Shown here: positions 4,181-40,929 of the stretch, piece by piece
How positions within the stretch are numbered: position 1 is the stretch's first letter
How the letters are laid out: the number at the start of each line of letters is the position of its first letter
Sequence record: MZ031013.1
DNA from: Escherichia phage vB_EcoA_fTuEco01
Length of the DNA: 44,320 bases
Strand: one strand, 5' to 3'
Program-made: the position numbers and the translations under genes
Notes under the pieces: generated by a model
The model's input: only the letters and a program-made list of their open reading frames with translations
Told to the model about the DNA's origin: nothing
The model's database searches: none

Positions 4181-6808
4181 ATGCAAGACCTACACGCTAT
4201 TCAACTTCAACTTGAAGAAGAAATGTTTAACGGCGGTATCCGTCGCTTTGAAGCGGACCAACAACGCCAGATTGCATCCGGTAATGAATCAGACACGGCA
4301 TGGAATCGCCGTTTATTGTCCGAGTTAATCGCGCCAATGGCTGAAGGTATTCAGGCATACAAGGAAGAGTATGAAGGTAAAAGAGGCCGTGCACCGCGTG
4401 CATTAGCTTTCATTAACTGCGTAGAAAACGAAGTGGCAGCATATATCACGATGAAAATCGTTATGGATATGCTGAATACAGACGTTACCTTACAAGCAAT
4501 CGCTATGAATGTAGCGGACCGCATCGAAGACCAAGTACGTTTTAGCAAGCTGGAAGGTCACGCAGCTAAGTACTTTGAGAAAGTGAAGAAGTCGCTTAAG
4601 GCTAGCAAGACTAAATCTTATCGTCATGCGCACAACGTAGCGGTAGTAGCTGAGAAATCTGTTGCTGACCGTGACGCGGATTTCTCCCGTTGGGAGGCAT
4701 GGCCTAAAGATACCTTGCTACAAATCGGTATGACCTTGCTAGAAATACTGGAAAATAGTGTATTCTTCAATGGTCAGCCTGTCTTTCTTCGCACCTTGCG
4801 CACTAATGGTGGCAAGCATGGCGTTTACTACTTACAGACCAGTGAACACGTAGGGGAATGGATTACAGCATTTAAAGAACATGTAGCGCAACTTAGCCCG
4901 GCTTATGCACCTTGCGTTATACCTCCGCGTCCGTGGGTTTCTCCTTTTAATGGCGGTTTTCACACTGAGAAGGTAGCAAGTCGTGTGCGTCTTGTTAAAG
5001 GCAGCCGTGAACACGTCCGCAAGCTGACCAAAAAGCAAATGCCAGCGGTTTACAAGGCTGTTAACGCTTTGCAGGCGACTAAATGGCAGGTTAACAAGGA
5101 AGTTTTACAGGTTGTTGAGGACGTAATACGGCTTGATTTAGGCTATGGCGTACCTTCCTTCAAACCACTCATCGACCGCGAGAACAAGCCAGCTAATCCG
5201 GTGCCGTTAGAGTTCCAGCACCTGCGAGGCCGTGAACTGAAAGAAATGTTAACACCGGAACAATGGCAAGCCTTCATCAACTGGAAAGGTGAATGCACCA
5301 AGCTGTATACCGCTGAGACTAAGCGCGGCAGCAAATCGGCGGCGACCGTCCGCATGGTAGGGCAGGCCCGTAAATACAGCCAATTTGACGCAATATACTT
5401 CGTGTATGCTCTGGACAGCCGCAGCCGCGTCTACGCGCAATCTAGCACGCTCTCTCCGCAATCAAACGACTTAGGCAAGGCATTGCTCCGTTTTACCGAA
5501 GGGCAGCGTCTTGATAGCGCTGAGGCGCTTAAGTGGTTTTTGGTGAACGGGGCTAATAACTGGGGTTGGGATAAGAAAACTTTTGACGTGCGCACCGCTA
5601 ACGTGCTGGATAGTGAATTTCAAGACATGTGCCGCGACATTGCAGCGGATCCGCTGACCTTCACTCAATGGGTAAATGCCGACTCCCCTTACGGCTTCCT
5701 TGCATGGTGCTTTGAATATGCGCGTTATCTGGATGCACTGGATGAAGGCACGCAAGACCAATTCATGACGCACCTCCCAGTCCATCAAGATGGTAGTTGT
5801 TCTGGTATCCAGCACTACAGTGCTATGCTACGCGATGCAGTAGGTGCGAAAGCGGTAAACCTTAAGCCCTCTGACTCACCTCAAGATATTTATGGTGCCG
5901 TTGCGCAGGTAGTAATTCAGAAGAATTATGCATACATGAATGCAGAGGATGCGGAAACCTTCACTTCTGGCAGCGTGACTTTAACAGGTGCAGAACTTCG
6001 TAGCATGGCTAGTGCGTGGGATATGATAGGAATCACTCGCGGCCTGACCAAAAAGCCTGTAATGACACTACCTTATGGCAGCACACGTCTAACCTGCCGT
6101 GAATCAGTGATTGATTATATCGTTGATTTGGAAGAAAAAGAGGCCCAACGGGCTATTGCGGAAGGGCGTACCGCCAATCCTGTACATCCTTTTGATAATG
6201 ACCGCAAAGACAGCCTGACACCTAGCGCAGCTTATAACTATATGACAGCTTTAATCTGGCCTTCTATTTCGGAAGTGGTTAAAGCTCCTATAGTGGCAAT
6301 GAAAATGATTCGTCAGCTTGCACGTTTCGCAGCTAAAAGAAACGAAGGCTTAGAATATCCCTTACCAACTGGCTTCATCTTGCAACAAAAGATAATGGCT
6401 ACCGATATGCTCCGCGTATCCACTTGCTTGATGGGTGAAATCAAGATGAGTCTCCAGATTGAAACAGATGTAGTTGATGAAACGGCAATGATGGGTGCGG
6501 CTGCTCCTAACTTCGTCCATGGTCACGATGCTAGCCACCTGATTCTGACTGTATGTGACCTAGTGGATAAAGGTATTACATCCATTGCAGTCATCCATGA
6601 TTCTTTCGGTACTCATGCAGGACGTACCGCAGACCTGCGGGATAGCTTAAGGGAAGAAATGGTTAAGATGTATCAAAACCATAATGCCCTGCAAAACCTG
6701 CTAGATGTGCACGAAGAGCGTTGGTTAGTAGACACCGGAATCCAAGTACCAGAGCAAGGAGAGTTTGACCTTAACGAAATCTTAGTTTCAGACTATTGTT
6801 TCGCATAA
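4181..6808 (+). CDS. Single-subunit DNA-directed RNA polymerase (T7 gene 1-like), 875 aa
   Basis: [22 protein letters not shown] and the C-terminal ILVSDYCFA correspond to T7 RNAP motifs ([22 protein letters not shown], ...FAFA). Size is close to SP6 RNAP. Confidence 0.95.
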
Positions 6809-21059: not shown

Positions 21060-21269
21060 ATGGGTATTGTAAAGAAAGCATTTAAGGCTGTCGGTCTTGC
21101 TCAAGATGCACCGCGTATTGAAGCCAAGGTTCCTGCTCAGCAGCTTGAGCGTAAGCCTGAGACTGAAGCTGAAGATATACAGATTGGTGCAGGTGGTGAT
21201 GATGCGACTGCATCTGCAAAAGGTAAGCGCGGGCTTGTCCGTCCGGTAGCTTCTAGCTTGAAGGTGTAA
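21060..21269 (+). CDS. Hypothetical Gly/Ala-rich small protein, 69 aa, possibly a T7 gp6.7-like virion protein
   Basis: Position immediately upstream of the portal gene and composition similar to T7 gp6.7; by analogy only. Confidence 0.4.
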   Translation: MGIVKKAFKAVGLAQDAPRIEAKVPAQQLERKPETEAEDIQIGAGGDDATASAKGKRGLVRPVASSLKV

Positions 21270-23747: not shown

Positions 23748-23768
23748 ATTTACTGGACACTATAGAAG
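23748..23768 (+). promoter_or_regulatory. Phage RNAP promoter upstream of the major capsid gene
   Basis: ATTTACTGGACACTATAGAAG, perfect consensus. Confidence 0.85.
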
Positions 23769-23812
23769 GGAGAAACACCTCCCTAAATTATCAATTTGAT
23801 TTATAAGGAGAT
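23768..23812 (+). promoter_or_regulatory. Capsid mRNA leader: 5' stem-loop GGGAG-aaacac-CTCCC (23768..23783) plus strong SD TAAGGAGAT
   Basis: Hairpin begins at the transcript 5' end, followed by an AT-rich spacer and AAGGAG 10 nt before the ATG. Same architecture as the T7 gene 10 leader. Confidence 0.6.
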
Positions 23813-23820
23813 CATAATAC

Positions 23821-25032
23821 ATGTCTACACCGAATACTCTGACTAACGTTGCTGTATCCGCATCCGGTGAGGTTGACAGCCTTCTTATTGAGAAGTTTAA
23901 CGGTAAGGTTAATGAGCAGTACCTGAAAGGCGAGAACATTCTTTCCTATTTTGATGTACAGACTGTAACGGGTACAAACACGGTTAGCAATAAATACTTA
24001 GGTGAGACTGAATTGCAGGTGTTAGCACCGGGTCAGTCTCCTAATGCTACACCAACTCAGGCAGATAAAAACCAGTTGGTAATTGATACCACTGTTATTG
24101 CCCGTAACACTGTGGCACACATCCATGATGTGCAGGGTGACATTGATAGCCTGAAACCTAAGCTGGCAATGAACCAAGCCAAACAACTGAAACGTCTGGA
24201 AGACCAGATGGCAATCCAGCAGATGCTGTTGGGTGGCATTGCTAACACCAAAGACAAGCGCAATAAGCCACGTGTAAAAGGCCACGGCTTCTCTATCAAC
24301 GTCAACATTACTGAAAGCGAAGCACTTTCTAACCCACAGTATGTTATGGCTGCTGTTGAGTATGCTCTGGAACAACAGCTTGAGCAGGAAGTAGACATCT
24401 CTGATGTAGCTATCCTGATGCCGTGGAAGTTCTTCAATGCGCTGCGTGATGCAGACCGTATCGTAGATAAGACTTACACCATTAGCCAGTCAGGTAGCAC
24501 GGTACAAGGGTTCGTATTGTCTTCTTACAATTGCCCTGTTATCCCGTCTAACCGTTTCCCTTCTTTTGCACAGGGTGCATCTCACCACCTGTTATCTAAC
24601 GCAGATAACGGATATCGCTATGACCCGACAGCAGAGATGAATGGTGCAGTTGCTGTACTGTTTACAGCGGATGCACTGCTGGTTGGTCGCACCATTGATG
24701 TAACTGGTGATATCTTCTATGAGAAGAAAGAGAAGACTTACTACATCGATACCTTTATGGCAGAAGGTGCAATCCCTGACCGTTGGGAAGCTGTGTCTGT
24801 GGTCACAACTAAACGCAACACCACAACTGGTGCTGTTGATGCAGGTGCAGGTGCAGGCACTGACCACGCTACTGTCCTATCTCGTGCACAGCGTAAGGCG
24901 GTGTATGTCAAGAGCGCTAACCCGGCAGGTGCTGCCGCTGCTGCTAGCTTGTCTGCTGAAGACTTGGTTGCTGCTGTACGTGCAGTGATGGCTAATGACA
25001 TTAAGCCGACTGCAATGAAACCTACTGAGTAA
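23821..25032 (+). CDS. Major capsid protein, 403 aa
   Basis: Strongest promoter/leader/RBS combination in the window, optimal codon usage, a terminator immediately downstream, and position after the scaffold gene. Confidence 0.85.
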   Translation: MSTPNTLTNVAVSASGEVDSLLIEKFNGKVNEQYLKGENILSYFDVQTVTGTNTVSNKYLGETELQVLAPGQSPNATPTQADKNQLVIDTTVIARNTVAHIHDVQGDIDSLKPKLAMNQAKQLKRLEDQMAIQQMLLGGIANTKDKRNKPRVKGHGFSINVNITESEALSNPQYVMAAVEYALEQQLEQEVDISDVAILMPWKFFNALRDADRIVDKTYTISQSGSTVQGFVLSSYNCPVIPSNRFPSFAQGASHHLLSNADNGYRYDPTAEMNGAVAVLFTADALLVGRTIDVTGDIFYEKKEKTYYIDTFMAEGAIPDRWEAVSVVTTKRNTTTGAVDAGAGAGTDHATVLSRAQRKAVYVKSANPAGAAAAASLSAEDLVAAVRAVMANDIKPTAMKPTE

Positions 25033-36435: not shown

Positions 36436-36718
36436 ACATGCAGCTACGGAAGACGAGGTTGGCATTCTACATGGTGCTATTACCAAAATCTTTAATAAGA
36501 AAGCACAGGCAATACTGGACACTATAGAAGAAGACCCAGATGCAGCACTGCATTTAGTCTCTGGTAAAGACATTGGAGCTATGTGTAAGTGGGTTCTTGA
36601 TAATGGTATTACCGCTACACCCGCTGCACAGCAGGAGGAGTCCAAGCTATCTAAGCGCCTCAAGGCTATCCGAGAGGCATCAAGTGGCAAGATTATTCAA
36701 TTCACTAAGGAGGATTGA
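36419..36718 (+). CDS. Putative terminase small subunit, 99 aa
   Basis: GTG start 5 nt after GGAGGAGG; lies immediately upstream of, and is translationally coupled (TGATG) to, the large terminase gene. Confidence 0.45.
   Translation: MSVHNKHAATEDEVGILHGAITKIFNKKAQAILDTIEEDPDAALHLVSGKDIGAMCKWVLDNGITATPAAQQEESKLSKRLKAIREASSGKIIQFTKED
36510..36530 (+). promoter_or_regulatory. Phage RNAP promoter embedded in the putative small terminase gene
   Basis: CAATACTGGACACTATAGAAG; in frame it encodes ILDTIEE. Confidence 0.6.
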
Positions 36719-38616
36719 TGGCTAAGGCAAGAGAATCACAAGCGGAGGCTCTTGCCAGATGGGAGATGCTACAGGAGTTACAGCAGACCTTTCCTTACAC
36801 AGCGGAAGGTTTGCTTCTCTTTGCAGACACAGTTATTCATAACTTAATTGCAGGCAACCCTCATCTGATTCGTATGCAGGCTGATATCTTGAAGTTCCTA
36901 TTCTACGGACACAAGTATCGCCTCATCGAAGCGCCTCGTGGTATCGCTAAGACAACACTATCAGCAATCTATACAGTATTCCGTATCATTCATGAACCGC
37001 ATAAGCGTATCATGGTTGTATCCCAAAACGCCAAGCGAGCAGAGGAAATCGCAGGTTGGGTAGTTAAAATCTTCCGGGGCTTAGACTTTCTTGAGTTTAT
37101 GCTGCCGGATATCTACGCTGGGGACCGTGCATCCGTTAAGGCGTTTGAGATTCATTACACCCTACGTGGTAGTGATAAGTCTCCTTCTGTATCCTGTTAC
37201 TCAATCGAAGCAGGTATGCAGGGTGCTCGTGCTGATATTATTCTAGCGGATGACGTAGAGTCGATGCAGAATGCTCGTACGGCAGCGGGCCGTGCCTTGC
37301 TTGAGGAACTGACTAAGGAGTTTGAATCTATCAACCAGTTTGGGGACATCATTTACCTTGGTACACCTCAGAACGTAAACTCTATCTATAACAACCTACC
37401 TGCTCGTGGTTACTCTGTTCGTATCTGGACTGCGCGTTACCCTTCAGTAGAGCAAGAGCAATGTTATGGCGACTTCCTTGCACCTATGATTGTTCAAGAT
37501 ATGAAGGACAACCCAGCACTTCGCTCAGGGTACGGGTTGGATGGTAATAGTGGTGCACCTTGTGCCCCTGAAATGTATGATGATGAAGTCCTGATTGAGA
37601 AGGAAATCTCTCAGGGTGCTGCTAAGTTCCAGCTTCAGTTCATGCTTAACACTCGCATGATGGATGCTGACAGATACCCATTACGCCTGAACAATCTAAT
37701 CTTCACCTCGTTTGGTACAGAGGAAGTCCCTGTGATGCCTACGTGGAGTAATGATTCCATAAACATCATTGGTGATGCACCTAAGTATGGTAACAAGCCT
37801 ACGGATTTCATGTACAGACCTGTAGCTCGCCCATACGAATGGGGTGCTGTCTCCCGCAAGATTATGTATATTGACCCTGCGGGTGGTGGTAAGAACGGAG
37901 ATGAGACGGGTGTAGCCATCGTATTCCTGCACGGCACATTCATTTATGTGTATCAGTGCTTTGGTGTACCTGGCGGATACCGAGAGTCGTCCCTGAATCG
38001 CATTGTGCAGGCCGCAAAGCAGGCGGGTGTTAAAGAGGTATTCATTGAGAAGAACTTTGGTCATGGCGCGTTTGAGGCGGTAATTAAGCCGTACTTTGAA
38101 CGAGAGTGGCCTGTAACTCTGGAAGAGGATTACGCCACCGGACAGAAAGAGTTGCGTATCATTGAGACGCTGGAGCCGCTCATGGCAGCCCATAGGCTTA
38201 TCTTCAATGCAGAGATGGTGAAGTCAGACTTTGAGTCGGTACAGCACTATCCGCTTGAACTACGCATGTCCTACAGTCTTTTCAATCAAATGTCGAACAT
38301 AACGATTGAGAAGAACAGCCTCCGGCACGATGACCGCCTAGACGCCCTGTATGGCGCTATACGGCAATTAACTTCTCAGATAGACTATGACGAGGTTACA
38401 CGGATTAATCGCCTCAGAGCGCAGGAGATGCGCGATTACATCCATGCTATGAATACACCTCATCTACGCAGGGCAATGCTATATGGAGATTACGGTACTG
38501 AGCGAAGAGTGACCAACACTTCCGTAGCGATGCAGCAGCGAGTTTACGGGCAGAACTACCGAAATAAATCGGCAAGCAGAAATACACTTTCTGCAAGGAT
38601 TTCAAGGACTTATTAA
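36718..38616 (+). CDS. Terminase large subunit (T7 gene 19-like), 632 aa
   Basis: Walker A-like APRGIAKTT, a Walker B-like hydrophobic stretch followed by DD (ADIILADDVES), and a C-terminal nuclease region; AAGGAGG RBS. Confidence 0.9.
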   Translation: MAKARESQAEALARWEMLQELQQTFPYTAEGLLLFADTVIHNLIAGNPHLIRMQADILKFLFYGHKYRLIEAPRGIAKTTLSAIYTVFRIIHEPHKRIMVVSQNAKRAEEIAGWVVKIFRGLDFLEFMLPDIYAGDRASVKAFEIHYTLRGSDKSPSVSCYSIEAGMQGARADIILADDVESMQNARTAAGRALLEELTKEFESINQFGDIIYLGTPQNVNSIYNNLPARGYSVRIWTARYPSVEQEQCYGDFLAPMIVQDMKDNPALRSGYGLDGNSGAPCAPEMYDDEVLIEKEISQGAAKFQLQFMLNTRMMDADRYPLRLNNLIFTSFGTEEVPVMPTWSNDSINIIGDAPKYGNKPTDFMYRPVARPYEWGAVSRKIMYIDPAGGGKNGDETGVAIVFLHGTFIYVYQCFGVPGGYRESSLNRIVQAAKQAGVKEVFIEKNFGHGAFEAVIKPYFEREWPVTLEEDYATGQKELRIIETLEPLMAAHRLIFNAEMVKSDFESVQHYPLELRMSYSLFNQMSNITIEKNSLRHDDRLDALYGAIRQLTSQIDYDEVTRINRLRAQEMRDYIHAMNTPHLRRAMLYGDYGTERRVTNTSVAMQQRVYGQNYRNKSASRNTLSARISRTY

Positions 38617-38636
38617 TTACTGGACACTATAGAAGG
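38614..38636 (+). promoter_or_regulatory. Phage RNAP promoter (AATTACTGGACACTATAGAAGG)
   Basis: Consensus match overlapping the terminase stop. Confidence 0.75.
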
Positions 38637-38649
38637 AAGGCCCAGATAA

Positions 38650-38702
38650 TAAGAGAAAATAATAGGTAATATATAGGTTAACCTAGGTTATATAGGTATG
38701 CC
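38650..38702. repeat. AT-rich TAGGTWA-repeat block downstream of a promoter
   Basis: aataggtaatatataggttaacctaggttatataggtatgcc; the same motif family as at 6961..7020 and 13608..13672. Confidence 0.5.
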
Positions 38703-38709
38703 TTAGTAT

Positions 38710-38729
38710 GGGTGTACTCCTGTACACCC
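38710..38729 (+). promoter_or_regulatory. Perfect hairpin GGGTGTAC-tcct-GTACACCC in the leader of the paralogue cluster
   Basis: 8-bp perfect stem with a 4-nt loop, read directly from the sequence. Confidence 0.45.
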
Positions 38730-38773
38730 TATTCCTTACTACCTTACTATATTTACATAATAGGAGAGAGACA

Positions 38774-39049
38774 ATGGCTAATGATTATAGTAGTCAACCA
38801 TTAACAGGTAAGTCTAAGAGAAAGCAGGTACAACCTGTAAGTGAAGAACTAATGCTTCCGGTAATCCCAAAAGAGGCAGCTAGTAAGAAAAGCAATGTTA
38901 TTAATGATGCCACCAAATCAGGTAAACAGAAAGGGGCCATGGTATGCCTTGAAGTGGACGGTGCATGGCAGATTGCTATCGCTGTTGATGGCAAAGAAGA
39001 CTCAGAGTGGAAGTTAGTGACAAGGGAACCCACTGTTACCCCAGTTTAA
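38774..39049 (+). CDS. Hypothetical protein P1, 91 aa, first of three tandem paralogues
   Basis: TAGGAGAGAG RBS; shares the ...SGKQ.GAMV...IA.A..G.E...W... core with the next two ORFs. Confidence 0.6.
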   Translation: MANDYSSQPLTGKSKRKQVQPVSEELMLPVIPKEAASKKSNVINDATKSGKQKGAMVCLEVDGAWQIAIAVDGKEDSEWKLVTREPTVTPV

Positions 39050-39067
39050 GAGAAGGAGGAAGATTAC

Positions 39068-39355
39068 ATGGCTAAATATGGTACTACAGGTTCTGTTACG
39101 GGTCAGGCTTTTCGAGTGAAAGCAGTACAAACTATTGCAACGGCAATTCCTATGCCTGTTGTTGCTGAAGAAGACCTTAAGAAGAAAGATCATCCTATCA
39201 ACATCAAATATTTATCAGGTAAACAGAGAGGTGCAATGGTTGTTATTTCGAGAGCGGACACAACCGTGCATATTGCTGTTGCACGTGGTAGTGAGCCCAC
39301 CGACGTTTGGGATGTAACTGCTATGGACCCCATTGCTGTTACACCAGGGGAGTGA
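39068..39355 (+). CDS. Hypothetical protein P2, 95 aa, second tandem paralogue
   Basis: GAAGGAGGA RBS; KYLSGKQRGAMVVISRADTTVHIAVARGSEPTDVWDV aligns with P1 and P3. Confidence 0.6.
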   Translation: MAKYGTTGSVTGQAFRVKAVQTIATAIPMPVVAEEDLKKKDHPINIKYLSGKQRGAMVVISRADTTVHIAVARGSEPTDVWDVTAMDPIAVTPGE

Positions 39356-39362
39356 TATTATC

Positions 39363-40040
39363 GTGTTAGGTATTACAGGACAACGAAGTGTAAGTCATCA
39401 AGCTAAGGTTGCCACGGAAGTGGCTCCTATCGTTGATATCTCAGATGTGTCTGACGTTAACTCTTATCTAAACCAAAAGTACCTATCAGGCAAACAGGAA
39501 GGGTATACTGTTATGACTAAGAAAGGTTCACGTTATTCATTGTATGCTGCAACAGGTTCTAAGCCAGAAGATAAGTGGTTGCCTTTAGAGCAAGCAACCC
39601 TACCTGATTCGAGTGCATTAGAGCTAATTGACACCATCGATGTTGAAGTTGCAAGTGCAAGCGACACAGTAGAGGTTAATGTAACCAAAGAGAGGACTGT
39701 GTGCATCCAGACTCCTATGAAGGACTTAGCAGGTGATACAGTTTACCGGCAAGAATTGACTGCCAACATTAACCTTACCATTAATGAAAACGGAAGCCCA
39801 AGCGATACGGTTAAATTAAACATATCAATTCCTAATTTGCCAGGAACATCTAGTGGGTCTTACTATACAGTTGACAATGTGCTGTGTACTTCTTTTGGAG
39901 ACGACAGTCCTGTTATTGCCAATATAGATGTCGATAAGGCTACCACTAACTTGATTGCTGTTACACTTCGTAAAGAGACGGCAACAGATATTAGGCTGTC
40001 TCTTGTAATTAGGTGGTCAATGCCAGTGGAGGTTGTATAA
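39363..40040 (+). CDS. Hypothetical protein P3, about 225 aa, third paralogue with a C-terminal extension carrying internal DTVEVNVT / DTVKLNIS repeats
   Basis: N-terminal 90 aa align with P1/P2 (LGITGQ...KYLSGKQEGYTVM...AATGSKPEDKW). GTG start at 39363 is inferred; the track starts at an upstream TTG. Confidence 0.55.
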   Translation: MLGITGQRSVSHQAKVATEVAPIVDISDVSDVNSYLNQKYLSGKQEGYTVMTKKGSRYSLYAATGSKPEDKWLPLEQATLPDSSALELIDTIDVEVASASDTVEVNVTKERTVCIQTPMKDLAGDTVYRQELTANINLTINENGSPSDTVKLNISIPNLPGTSSGSYYTVDNVLCTSFGDDSPVIANIDVDKATTNLIAVTLRKETATDIRLSLVIRWSMPVEVV

Positions 40041-40384
40041 TGCTTAACAAATACTTCAAGCGTAAAGAGCTTGCTTGCCGTTGTGGGTGCGGTACATCCA
40101 CTGTTGATGCTGAATTACTACAGGTAGTCACAGATGTGCGTGAGCACTTTGGTTCCCCTGTAGTTATCACTTCTGGGCATCGCTGTGCTAAGCACAATGC
40201 TAATGTAGGAGGAGCTAAGAACTCCATGCATCTTACTGGTAAGGCTGCTGACATTAAGGTACGAGGCATCTTACCTTCTGATGTACATAAGTATCTTACT
40301 GATAAGTACCAAGGCAAGTATGGTATTGGTAAGTATACCTCCTTTACTCATATTGATGTACGTGACGGGTGTGCACGATGGTAG
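40040..40384 (+). CDS. Endolysin, peptidase M15-type zinc peptidoglycan peptidase, 114 aa
   Basis: SGHRCAKHNANVGGAKNSMHLTGKAADI matches the M15 motifs (S-x-H-R ... G-G-x-x-x-S-x-H ... A-x-D). TAATG overlap; GGAGGT RBS. Confidence 0.7.
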   Translation: MLNKYFKRKELACRCGCGTSTVDAELLQVVTDVREHFGSPVVITSGHRCAKHNANVGGAKNSMHLTGKAADIKVRGILPSDVHKYLTDKYQGKYGIGKYTSFTHIDVRDGCARW

Positions 40385-40492: not shown

Positions 40493-40642
40493 ATGAAAAA
40501 GCTGTTCAAATCTAAGAAGGTTGTAGGTGCACTAGTTGCATTGGCAATTGCTCTTGTTTCTGTAGGTCTTGGTGTAGACCTTGGCTCTGGCACGGAATCC
40601 TCTGTGACAGATGTGGTCTGCCAAGTGATCACCTGTGAATAA
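40493..40642 (+). CDS. Small membrane protein, 49 aa, in the lysis cassette (holin/antiholin or lysis regulator candidate)
   Basis: AAGGGAGA RBS; basic N-terminus MKKLFKSKK followed by the hydrophobic VVGALVALAIALVSVGLGV. Under 60 aa, so absent from the track. Confidence 0.4.
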   Translation: MKKLFKSKKVVGALVALAIALVSVGLGVDLGSGTESSVTDVVCQVITCE

Positions 40643-40856
40643 GTTTCTAGAAGTGCTGGCAGGTCTTATTGGCCTGCTTGTCTCTGCTAAGAAGAAACAA
40701 GAAGAGAAGGAGGCACAAAGTGAAGCGAATCATGCTAGCGACAACCCTGCTGATTGGTTCGCTGATCATTTCAGGGTGTCAGACGGCGTTACCAGAGAAT
40801 CCAAAGGTGAAGCCTCTGAAGCCGACGCTTACGGCAGTCTACGAGGTGGACGATAA
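40635..40856 (+). CDS. Putative i-spanin (Rz-like), 73 aa
   Basis: N-terminal transmembrane segment FLEVLAGLIGLLVSA followed by a charged periplasmic region; contains the start of the overlapping lipoprotein ORF. Confidence 0.5.
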   Translation: MNKFLEVLAGLIGLLVSAKKKQEEKEAQSEANHASDNPADWFADHFRVSDGVTRESKGEASEADAYGSLRGGR

Positions 40857-40929
40857 AGTCTGCTTCAGTAAGCCTGACGCTACAAAATTAGGTCTGTACA
40901 TTCTCTCGCTAGAACGCGGGTATAATTAA
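40732..40929 (+). CDS. Putative o-spanin (Rz1-like lipoprotein), 65 aa, overlapping the i-spanin in the +1 frame
   Basis: Signal peptide MLATTLLIGSLIISGC with lipobox LIISG|C, followed by a Pro-rich mature region (PENPKVKPLKPT). Confidence 0.6.
   Translation: MLATTLLIGSLIISGCQTALPENPKVKPLKPTLTAVYEVDDKVCFSKPDATKLGLYILSLERGYN

Follow-up and report, generated by a model that had tools for sequence, protein, structure and literature searches.

Introduction

The closest described relatives of the three tandem genes analyzed here are gp45, gp46, and gp47 of Klebsiella phage Kp7 (ON148527, Molineuxvirinae). The genes, designated P1, P2, and P3, occupy positions 38774 to 40040 of a 44,320-nucleotide stretch of DNA from Escherichia phage vB_EcoA_fTuEco01 (MZ031013.1), and this whole stretch is referred to as the window. 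In Kp7, gp45 (88 residues), gp46 (88 residues), and gp47 (178 residues) lie between the large terminase (TerL) and the endolysin. GenBank labels gp45 and gp46 as 'minor capsid protein' and gp47 as 'minor capsid protein with Ig-domain'. From purified Kp7 virions, visible silver-stained bands were excised and identified by mass spectrometry, and the proteins found include the 'minor capsid proteins (gp32, gp45, gp46, and gp47)' (bioRxiv 10.1101/2024.05.19.594906). An original prediction for P1, P2, and P3, made by reading the DNA without database searches, stated that the module had no assigned function. This is not quite right in view of the annotation of the Kp7 orthologs and their reported presence in virion gel bands. 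We assign a probability of roughly 0.68 to the conclusion that P1, P2, and P3 are capsid-accessory, or decoration, proteins of the virion. The analysis itself shows the paralogy of the three proteins, their orthology and synteny with the Kp7 genes, a late promoter, a modular carboxy terminus, and relatives that carry three of the domains in a single chain. Presence in the virion comes from the literature and is reported for the Kp7 orthologs only. The family was already recognized in Kp7 but is barely characterized, and the different display domain of P3 and the split or fused three-module architecture are added here.

Decoration proteins of other phages provide further comparisons. The α-claw/α-paw proteins of PhiM1 (gp44/gp43), their counterparts in HRP29, and gp55/gp54 of the phiKMV-like Ar-KM belong to Autographiviridae-type podophages, as P1–P3 do. 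The short paralog of each pair is a capsid-binding motif, and the long paralog joins this motif to a projecting arm or spike. By analogy, these pairs appear to be the closest match in logic, in that the paralogs have a common anchor and a display domain is optional. They are helix-turn-helix dimers located at two-fold axes, whereas the P1–P3 domain is predicted to be β-rich with short helices, matches nothing in the PDB by sequence or by fold, and occurs in threes. P1–P3 are unrelated to them in both sequence and predicted fold. Neither a helix-turn-helix dimerization motif nor similarity to the deposited α-claw/α-paw chains was found in P1–P3. T4 Hoc and T5 pb10 carry dispensable, outward-facing β-sandwich or Ig domains on a separate capsid-binding module, and weak adhesion to glycans has been proposed for them. 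A display domain tethered to the head is also what we propose for P3, but Hoc and pb10 bind the centers of hexamers as monomers and have no sequence relation to P3, whose C-terminal domain lacks an Ig match in Pfam. Lambda gpD and other β-tulip proteins, T4 Soc, and phage L Dec are proteins of ~9–15 kDa with N-terminal arms that become ordered on the capsid, and they sit in threes at three-fold or quasi-three-fold sites. P1–P3 resemble them in small size and presumed stoichiometry; no similarity of fold to gpD, Soc, or Dec was found.

Results

P1, P2, and P3 are tandem paralogs with orthologs in Kp7

The window derives from a K1E/K1-5-like coliphage of the genus Vectrevirus (Molineuxvirinae, SP6 supergroup), and its region 38600–40100 shares 98.4% identity with Escherichia phage vB_EcoP_KAW1A4500. 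P1 (38774–39049, + strand) encodes 91 residues from an ATG preceded by an AGGAG Shine-Dalgarno sequence, and P2 (39068–39355, + strand) encodes 95 residues from an ATG preceded by AAGGAGG. Each consists of a single core domain. P3 (39363–40040, + strand) encodes 225 residues from a GTG that follows a GGGGAG Shine-Dalgarno sequence, and its stop codon is at 40038–40040. The mechanically called open reading frame (ORF) of P3 opens earlier, at TTG 39333. We place the start at 39363 because homologs keep the N-terminal sequence MLG(I/V)TGQR. TerL (36715–38616, + strand) lies directly upstream of the module, and a Peptidase_M15_3 endolysin (40040–40384, + strand; Pfam E = 4e-33) lies downstream of P3.

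BLASTP matched P1 to Kp7 gp45 (44% identity, E = 7e-21) and P2 to Kp7 gp46 (45% identity, E = 7e-18), and the N-terminal domains of P3 and Kp7 gp47 are 31% identical (E = 1e-6). The two loci are syntenic: gene order and position between TerL and the M15 endolysin are equal, and both encode two proteins of ~90 residues and a longer third protein with the N-terminal domain in common. The major capsid protein of the window (gene 23821–25032) is 76% identical to that of Kp7. K1-5 gp41 and SP6 gp42 are also orthologs of P1, and K1-5 gp42 and SP6 gp43 are orthologs of P2.

The three proteins are significantly similar to each other. The BLASTP comparisons gave 34% identity for P1 and P2 (E = 5e-13), 37% identity over 52 residues for P2 and P3 (E = 1e-8), and E = 6e-4 for P1 and P3, and the domain common to all three is ~85 residues long. 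The invariant or near-invariant columns of the family alignments are T-G near the N terminus, N, S-G-K-(Q)-x-G-A, A, and W. The core motif of ~80 residues described in the original prediction is real and matches these columns. The ORFs, the TerL and endolysin neighbors, and the pairwise BLASTP comparisons bear out its view of the locus as three tandem paralogs between terminase and endolysin, and the paralogy supports the tandem duplication it proposed as their origin. The duplication is ancient because P1-type and P2-type proteins form two orthologous groups, each conserved in its own right in Vectrevirus, Zindervirus, Ulipvirus, and Kp7.

In the PHROG database, P1 and P2 match PHROG 2725 (E = 2.5e-36 and 6.3e-41, respectively), which is labeled 'acetyl-CoA acetyltransferase', and P3 matches PHROG 32357 (E = 3.7e-119). 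The Kp7 gp45–47-type family spans PHROG 2725, 32357, and 27324. Pfam and NCBIfam gave no match for P1, P2, or P3, and phmmer single-sequence and profile searches of the PDB found no chain of the family. P2 matches in the PDB at E = 0.3–0.5 (ribosomal L4; haloarchaeal virus VP4, 6h82/6h9c, E = 0.35–0.41) and a weak P2 match to PHROG 12934 'head protein' (E = 0.16) were treated as chance. The likeness of P2 to VP4 is most likely fortuitous because the family profile recovers neither the PDB chains (L4 and VP4) nor PHROG 12934.

P1 and P2 are in frame with each other, separated by TAA plus 18 nucleotides (39047–39070), and a tblastn search with a fused triple-domain query gives one high-scoring segment pair that spans P1 and P2 in K1E-type phages. 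Programmed read-through joining the two proteins was considered and rejected; only about half of the examined relatives have the in-frame layout, which is probably incidental.

A separate observation concerns Kp7 gp32 (68 residues), which carries the GenBank label 'minor capsid protein'. A 69-residue ORF at 21060–21269 (+ strand), just upstream of the portal gene, is clearly similar to gp32 by eye when the translations are placed side by side. From this comparison, the ORF may encode a small virion protein, the fourth of this phage.

The module has a late promoter

A 24-nucleotide late promoter for a phage RNA polymerase of the K1E/K1-5/SP6 type is located at 38617–38640 on the + strand (TTACTGGACACTATAGAAGGAAGG), and transcription is inferred to start at G38632. 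The window contains three further copies with 1–3 mismatches (13588, 15503, and 23750), compared to 0 expected by chance, and the site at 38617–38640 is kept in 11 related phages. These data confirm the prediction that the module has its own promoter. The copy at 23750 sits directly upstream of the major capsid gene, and thus the P1–P3 module is read from the late-promoter class of the capsid gene.

P3 carries an exchangeable carboxy-terminal domain

The AlphaFold2 model of P3 has a mean predicted local distance difference test (pLDDT) score of 77 and was built from a 39-sequence alignment. It consists of a disordered arm (residues 1–20), a core (residues 21–77), a low-confidence linker, and a β-sandwich (residues 93–220). 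Two short helices and a three-stranded sheet make up the core, with pLDDT values of 83–91 for residues 21–70. The arm and core (residues 1–77, 39363–39593) are the part common to P1 and P2, and the AlphaFold2 model of P2 likewise has a disordered N-terminal arm and a small α/β core (pLDDT 64). The β-sandwich is encoded at 39639–40022 and is presumed to be an outward-facing display or adhesion domain. This layout, in which a disordered N-terminal arm and a small core may be joined to a display domain, is typical of decoration proteins.

The predicted fold of the P3 sandwich is closest to the tips of trimeric fibers and tail fibers, including the pyocin R1/R2 fibers, AP22 gp53, PSA gp15, and the adenovirus and reovirus fiber heads, and it also resembles carbohydrate-binding modules. 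A BFVD relative, from Marinomonas phage CPP1m, is labeled 'tail fiber protein'. Kp7 gp47 passes Pfam Ig_3 (31.2 bits versus a cut-off of 30) and Ig_2. The P3 C-terminal domain has no Pfam match and hence no Ig-like domain by profile. The C-terminal domain of the third gene is therefore exchangeable: Kp7 gp47 ends in an Ig domain of ~90 residues, whereas P3 ends in an unrelated β-sandwich of ~130 residues.

The P3 extension had been described as beta-rich with internal repeats. The extension of ~145 residues is indeed β-rich in the AlphaFold2 model, but the repeats are at best weak. The local score for DTVEVNVT and DTVKLNIS is 36 compared to 25 ± 4.6 for shuffled sequences, ~3% of which reach 36, and the pair is not conserved as a repeat in P3 orthologs. 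The two segments are two β-strands of a single sandwich in the model. A true internal duplication was rejected on the marginal score and the failure of orthologs to keep the repeat.

Copy number and divergence of the core domain

The core domain was found by tblastn in 176 phage records, all of them podophages of ~43–47 kb. A hidden Markov model census of 17 sequences (the window and 16 related loci) located the domain solely in the module that follows TerL, in one to three copies, of which only the last is ever extended. Vibrio AS51 and Ralstonia Reminis have one copy. K1-5 has two short copies, and Era103 has one short and one long. Three copies with the last extended are present in this window, mutPK1A2, KAW1A4500, Koku, CrRp3, K44PH129C1, Kenya-K30, NTNC80A, and Kp7. 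The three copies of POP72 are all short, and the third copy of SP6 (gp44) is truncated. SP6 gp44 (81 residues, locus L010 3045–3290) aligns to P3 residues 2–61 (E = 1e-10) and ends inside the core domain; it is a truncated remnant of the long third paralog. The third gene is entirely absent from K1-5. P3 is considered dispensable because the SP6 copy is truncated and K1-5 lacks the gene.

Divergence was measured by comparing this phage to six relatives across genera. The endolysins are ~80% identical, and the identities are 38–63% for P1 and 44–73% for P2. P3 is 28–34% identical in four of the six phages, with values of 67% for NTNC80A and 28% for Kp7. The P1–P3 module evolves fast beside the adjacent endolysin.

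Single-chain proteins contain three tandem domains

An exhaustive search of 1.84 billion representatives with the core-domain profile (E ≤ 1e-3) returned 269 family proteins, many of which are single chains of 256–300 residues with three tandem domains. Domains were counted in 304 fetched proteins. Three were detected in 26 proteins and two in 20 proteins, ~14 of which are 256–290 residues long and probably contain one weak third copy. None of the 304 has more than three, and the number of single-chain triple-domain proteins is put at roughly 26–45. Two to four proteins have three domains followed by a C-terminal tail of 125–135 residues. A 27-kb T7-like metagenomic contig (L012) encodes TerL, then a 279-residue triple-domain protein, and then a 389-residue triple-domain-plus-tail protein, with no internal stop codons. 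The single tail or display domain of the fusions comes after the third module, matching the P1-P2-P3 gene order. Cultured fused forms were not found in the phage collection, where no record covers ≥80% of a triple-domain protein. Two small lipoprotein-like ORFs (70 and 62 residues, each with a signal-peptide-like N terminus ending in Cys) were noted between the two triple-domain genes at 5591–6001 of the contig.

Three recurs both as the maximum number of modules and as the number joined in the fusions, which argues for a functional unit of three modules. This does not establish P1, P2, and P3 as one heterotrimer because the fused domains lack clear orthology to the three proteins. When the fused proteins are compared with one another, domain position gives only a modest signal. 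Single-copy phages carry one copy of the domain and would therefore require homo-oligomers.

A conserved leader and hairpin precede P1

The spacer between TerL and P1 was aligned for 11 phages, including Vectrevirus, Ulipvirus, Zindervirus, and Kp7. A leader at 38663–38705 (+ strand) has near-invariant columns across these groups and contains repeated AGGT(A/T)nnCCTAG-like motifs, along with two perfect palindromes of 10 bp that overlap each other, AGGTTAACCT and AACCTAGGTT. The Kp7 version of the leader is two copies of AGGTAyGCCyTAG.

The leader is followed by a hairpin at 38710–38729 (+ strand; the element extends to 38739) that has a perfect 8-bp stem, a 4-nucleotide loop, and a pyrimidine-rich tract. 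The stem is preserved in 11 of 11 phages by compensatory changes, with at least five variants (GGGTGTAC, GAGGGTAC, GGGAGGTA, GGGTACTC, and GGGTAC with outer GG/CC), and a pyrimidine-rich tract follows in every case. The pattern of covariation points to a selected RNA structure that is terminator- or attenuator-like. The KAW1A4500 record annotates the hairpin as a putative terminator, and a positionally equivalent hairpin of Vibrio phage phiA318 was predicted to be a terminator (PMC4099482); it lies at 2905–2950 of the Vibrio AS51/phiA318 locus (L017). The tail after the hairpin, UAUUCCUU, is pyrimidine-rich with no clean U-run, and the element comes after the promoter it would terminate. The original prediction of a perfect 5' hairpin was correct about the stem. 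The 5' designation was not, because the stem begins ~79 nucleotides downstream of the inferred transcription start and so does not form the 5' terminus of the RNA. A short hairpin, GGGAG-AAACAC-CTCCC, was also seen directly after the promoter copy at 23750, at the start of that transcript (window 23750–23790). Promoter-proximal hairpins may be a general trait of the late transcripts of this phage.

Neighboring reading frames

All genes of the region are on the + strand, and the minus-strand ORFs across it are unconserved by-products. Downstream of the holin, a 73-residue ORF (40635–40856) holds an overlapping, out-of-frame ORF of 86 residues (40669–40929) with a lipobox-like LIISGCQ. The two look like an embedded Rz/Rz1-type spanin pair.

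Discussion

Of the roles listed as candidates in the original prediction, capsid decoration is favored by the Kp7 annotation and the virion bands, and the others are treated as rivals. P1, P2, and P3 would be late-expressed accessory ('minor') capsid proteins that decorate the head. A flexible N-terminal arm and the α/β core of ~60 residues would constitute the attachment module, so that P1 and P2 would be bare attachment modules. P3 would add a linker and a lectin- or knob-like β-sandwich that projects from the head. This sandwich would be dispensable and exchangeable, and it probably gives weak adhesion to glycans on host or environmental surfaces. The functional unit would most likely be three modules, forming a homotrimer or heterotrimer at the three-fold or quasi-three-fold sites of a T=7 HK97-type shell. 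This trimer model is tentative, and we place it somewhat below even odds. We infer the exterior location on the capsid, the trimeric stoichiometry, the binding site, and the role in adhesion.

Several points weigh against decoration of the head. The Kp7 assignment is a preprint statement and a GenBank label without a published map, and 'minor capsid' was possibly assigned loosely. The literature searched contained no cryo-electron microscopy or proteomics paper on decoration proteins of Vectrevirus or Zindervirus, including this phage and K1E/K1-5. The first, second, and third domains of the fused proteins show no clear positional orthology to P1, P2, and P3. Finally, a fixed P1:P2:P3 heterotrimer cannot be universal because the number of copies per genome varies from one to three.

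The strongest rival places P1–P3 on the virion at the neck or tail, as whiskers or accessory fibers on the portal, adaptor, or nozzle, with the P3 knob acting as an auxiliary receptor-binding protein. The structural neighbors of the P3 C-terminal domain are the trimeric fiber and tail-fiber tips, the BFVD relative from CPP1m is labeled 'tail fiber protein', and a constant N-terminal module with a variable C terminus is the classic architecture of receptor-binding proteins. The module also shares a late block with the tailspike. However, the Kp7 authors list the tail proteins apart and group gp45–47 with the capsid, P1 and P2 are without any distal domain, and K1-5 and K1E keep P1 and P2 but lack P3. 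Gel bands of ~9-kDa proteins that are visible suggest a high copy number. The tail organization of K1-5 and K1E was reportedly studied in detail by Leiman et al. in 2007. We regard a neck or tail location as improbable.

The chance is smaller still that P1–P3 are non-structural late proteins that merely co-purify with particles and act, for example, in lysis timing, as assembly chaperones, or as host-directed or anti-defense factors. The module adjoins the lysis cassette (endolysin, holin, and spanins), the proteins are small with no known fold, and the virion evidence comes from one preprint only. Ig and β-sandwich display domains, a late promoter of the capsid type, three-domain fusions, and fast, surface-like divergence would be unexpected for cytoplasmic regulators, and the finding of three distinct bands on gels of purified Kp7 virions speaks against contamination. 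Anti-defense genes of T7-like phages are typically early.

A role as internal head proteins that are packaged in the capsid and delivered into the host, one of the possibilities raised originally, is very unlikely. The proteins are small virion proteins, and Kp7 gp32 (68 residues), another 'minor capsid protein', could be internal; but the internal core proteins are encoded upstream in the gp35–37 block (Kp7 gp38–40), and there is little reason for Ig and lectin-like domains of the extracellular type to be in a DNA-filled head. The identity of P1–P3 as acetyl-CoA acetyltransferases is effectively refuted: only the database label of PHROG 2725 and many RefSeq and GenBank records speaks for it, and thiolases are ~390 residues long with two thiolase domains, whereas the 91- and 95-residue proteins have neither the thiolase N- and C-terminal domains nor any other Pfam or NCBIfam domain, no PDB match, and a predicted small β-hairpin fold. 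The label has spread through the RefSeq records of K1-5, K1E, and SP6 and other GenBank phage records, and on many of the 176 matching records it should read minor capsid or decoration protein.

Within the decoration model, a more specific arrangement can be proposed that we consider doubtful. The domain of ~85 residues may be an undescribed capsid-binding fold that acts as a pseudo-three-fold unit and is realized in several ways, with P1, P2, and P3 forming a defined asymmetric heterotrimer. One gene would give a homotrimer (Vibrio AS51 and Ralstonia Reminis), two or three diverged genes would give heterotrimers or site-specific trimers (K1-5 and this phage), and uncultured T7-like phages would carry the three domains in tandem on one polypeptide. 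The third position would always bear the display domain, which is single and exchangeable (Ig, knob-like sandwich, or other). If this is true, the P1/P2/P3 heterotrimer would read the non-equivalent environments of the T=7 lattice, and the family would be a natural split and fused 'single-chain trimer' system.

Phage therapy against K1 E. coli, Klebsiella, and Salmonella makes use of K1E/K1-5/SP6-like phages. A head protein that is conserved, abundant, and apparently non-essential and that bears an exchangeable outward domain would be a natural site for display or engineering, like Hoc, Soc, gpD, and pb10. Such a protein is likely to help determine how stable the particle is and how it interacts with mucus or serum, and it is probably immunodominant as an antigen. 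For a family without a solved structure, the three-domain fusions supply a concrete stoichiometry that can be tested.

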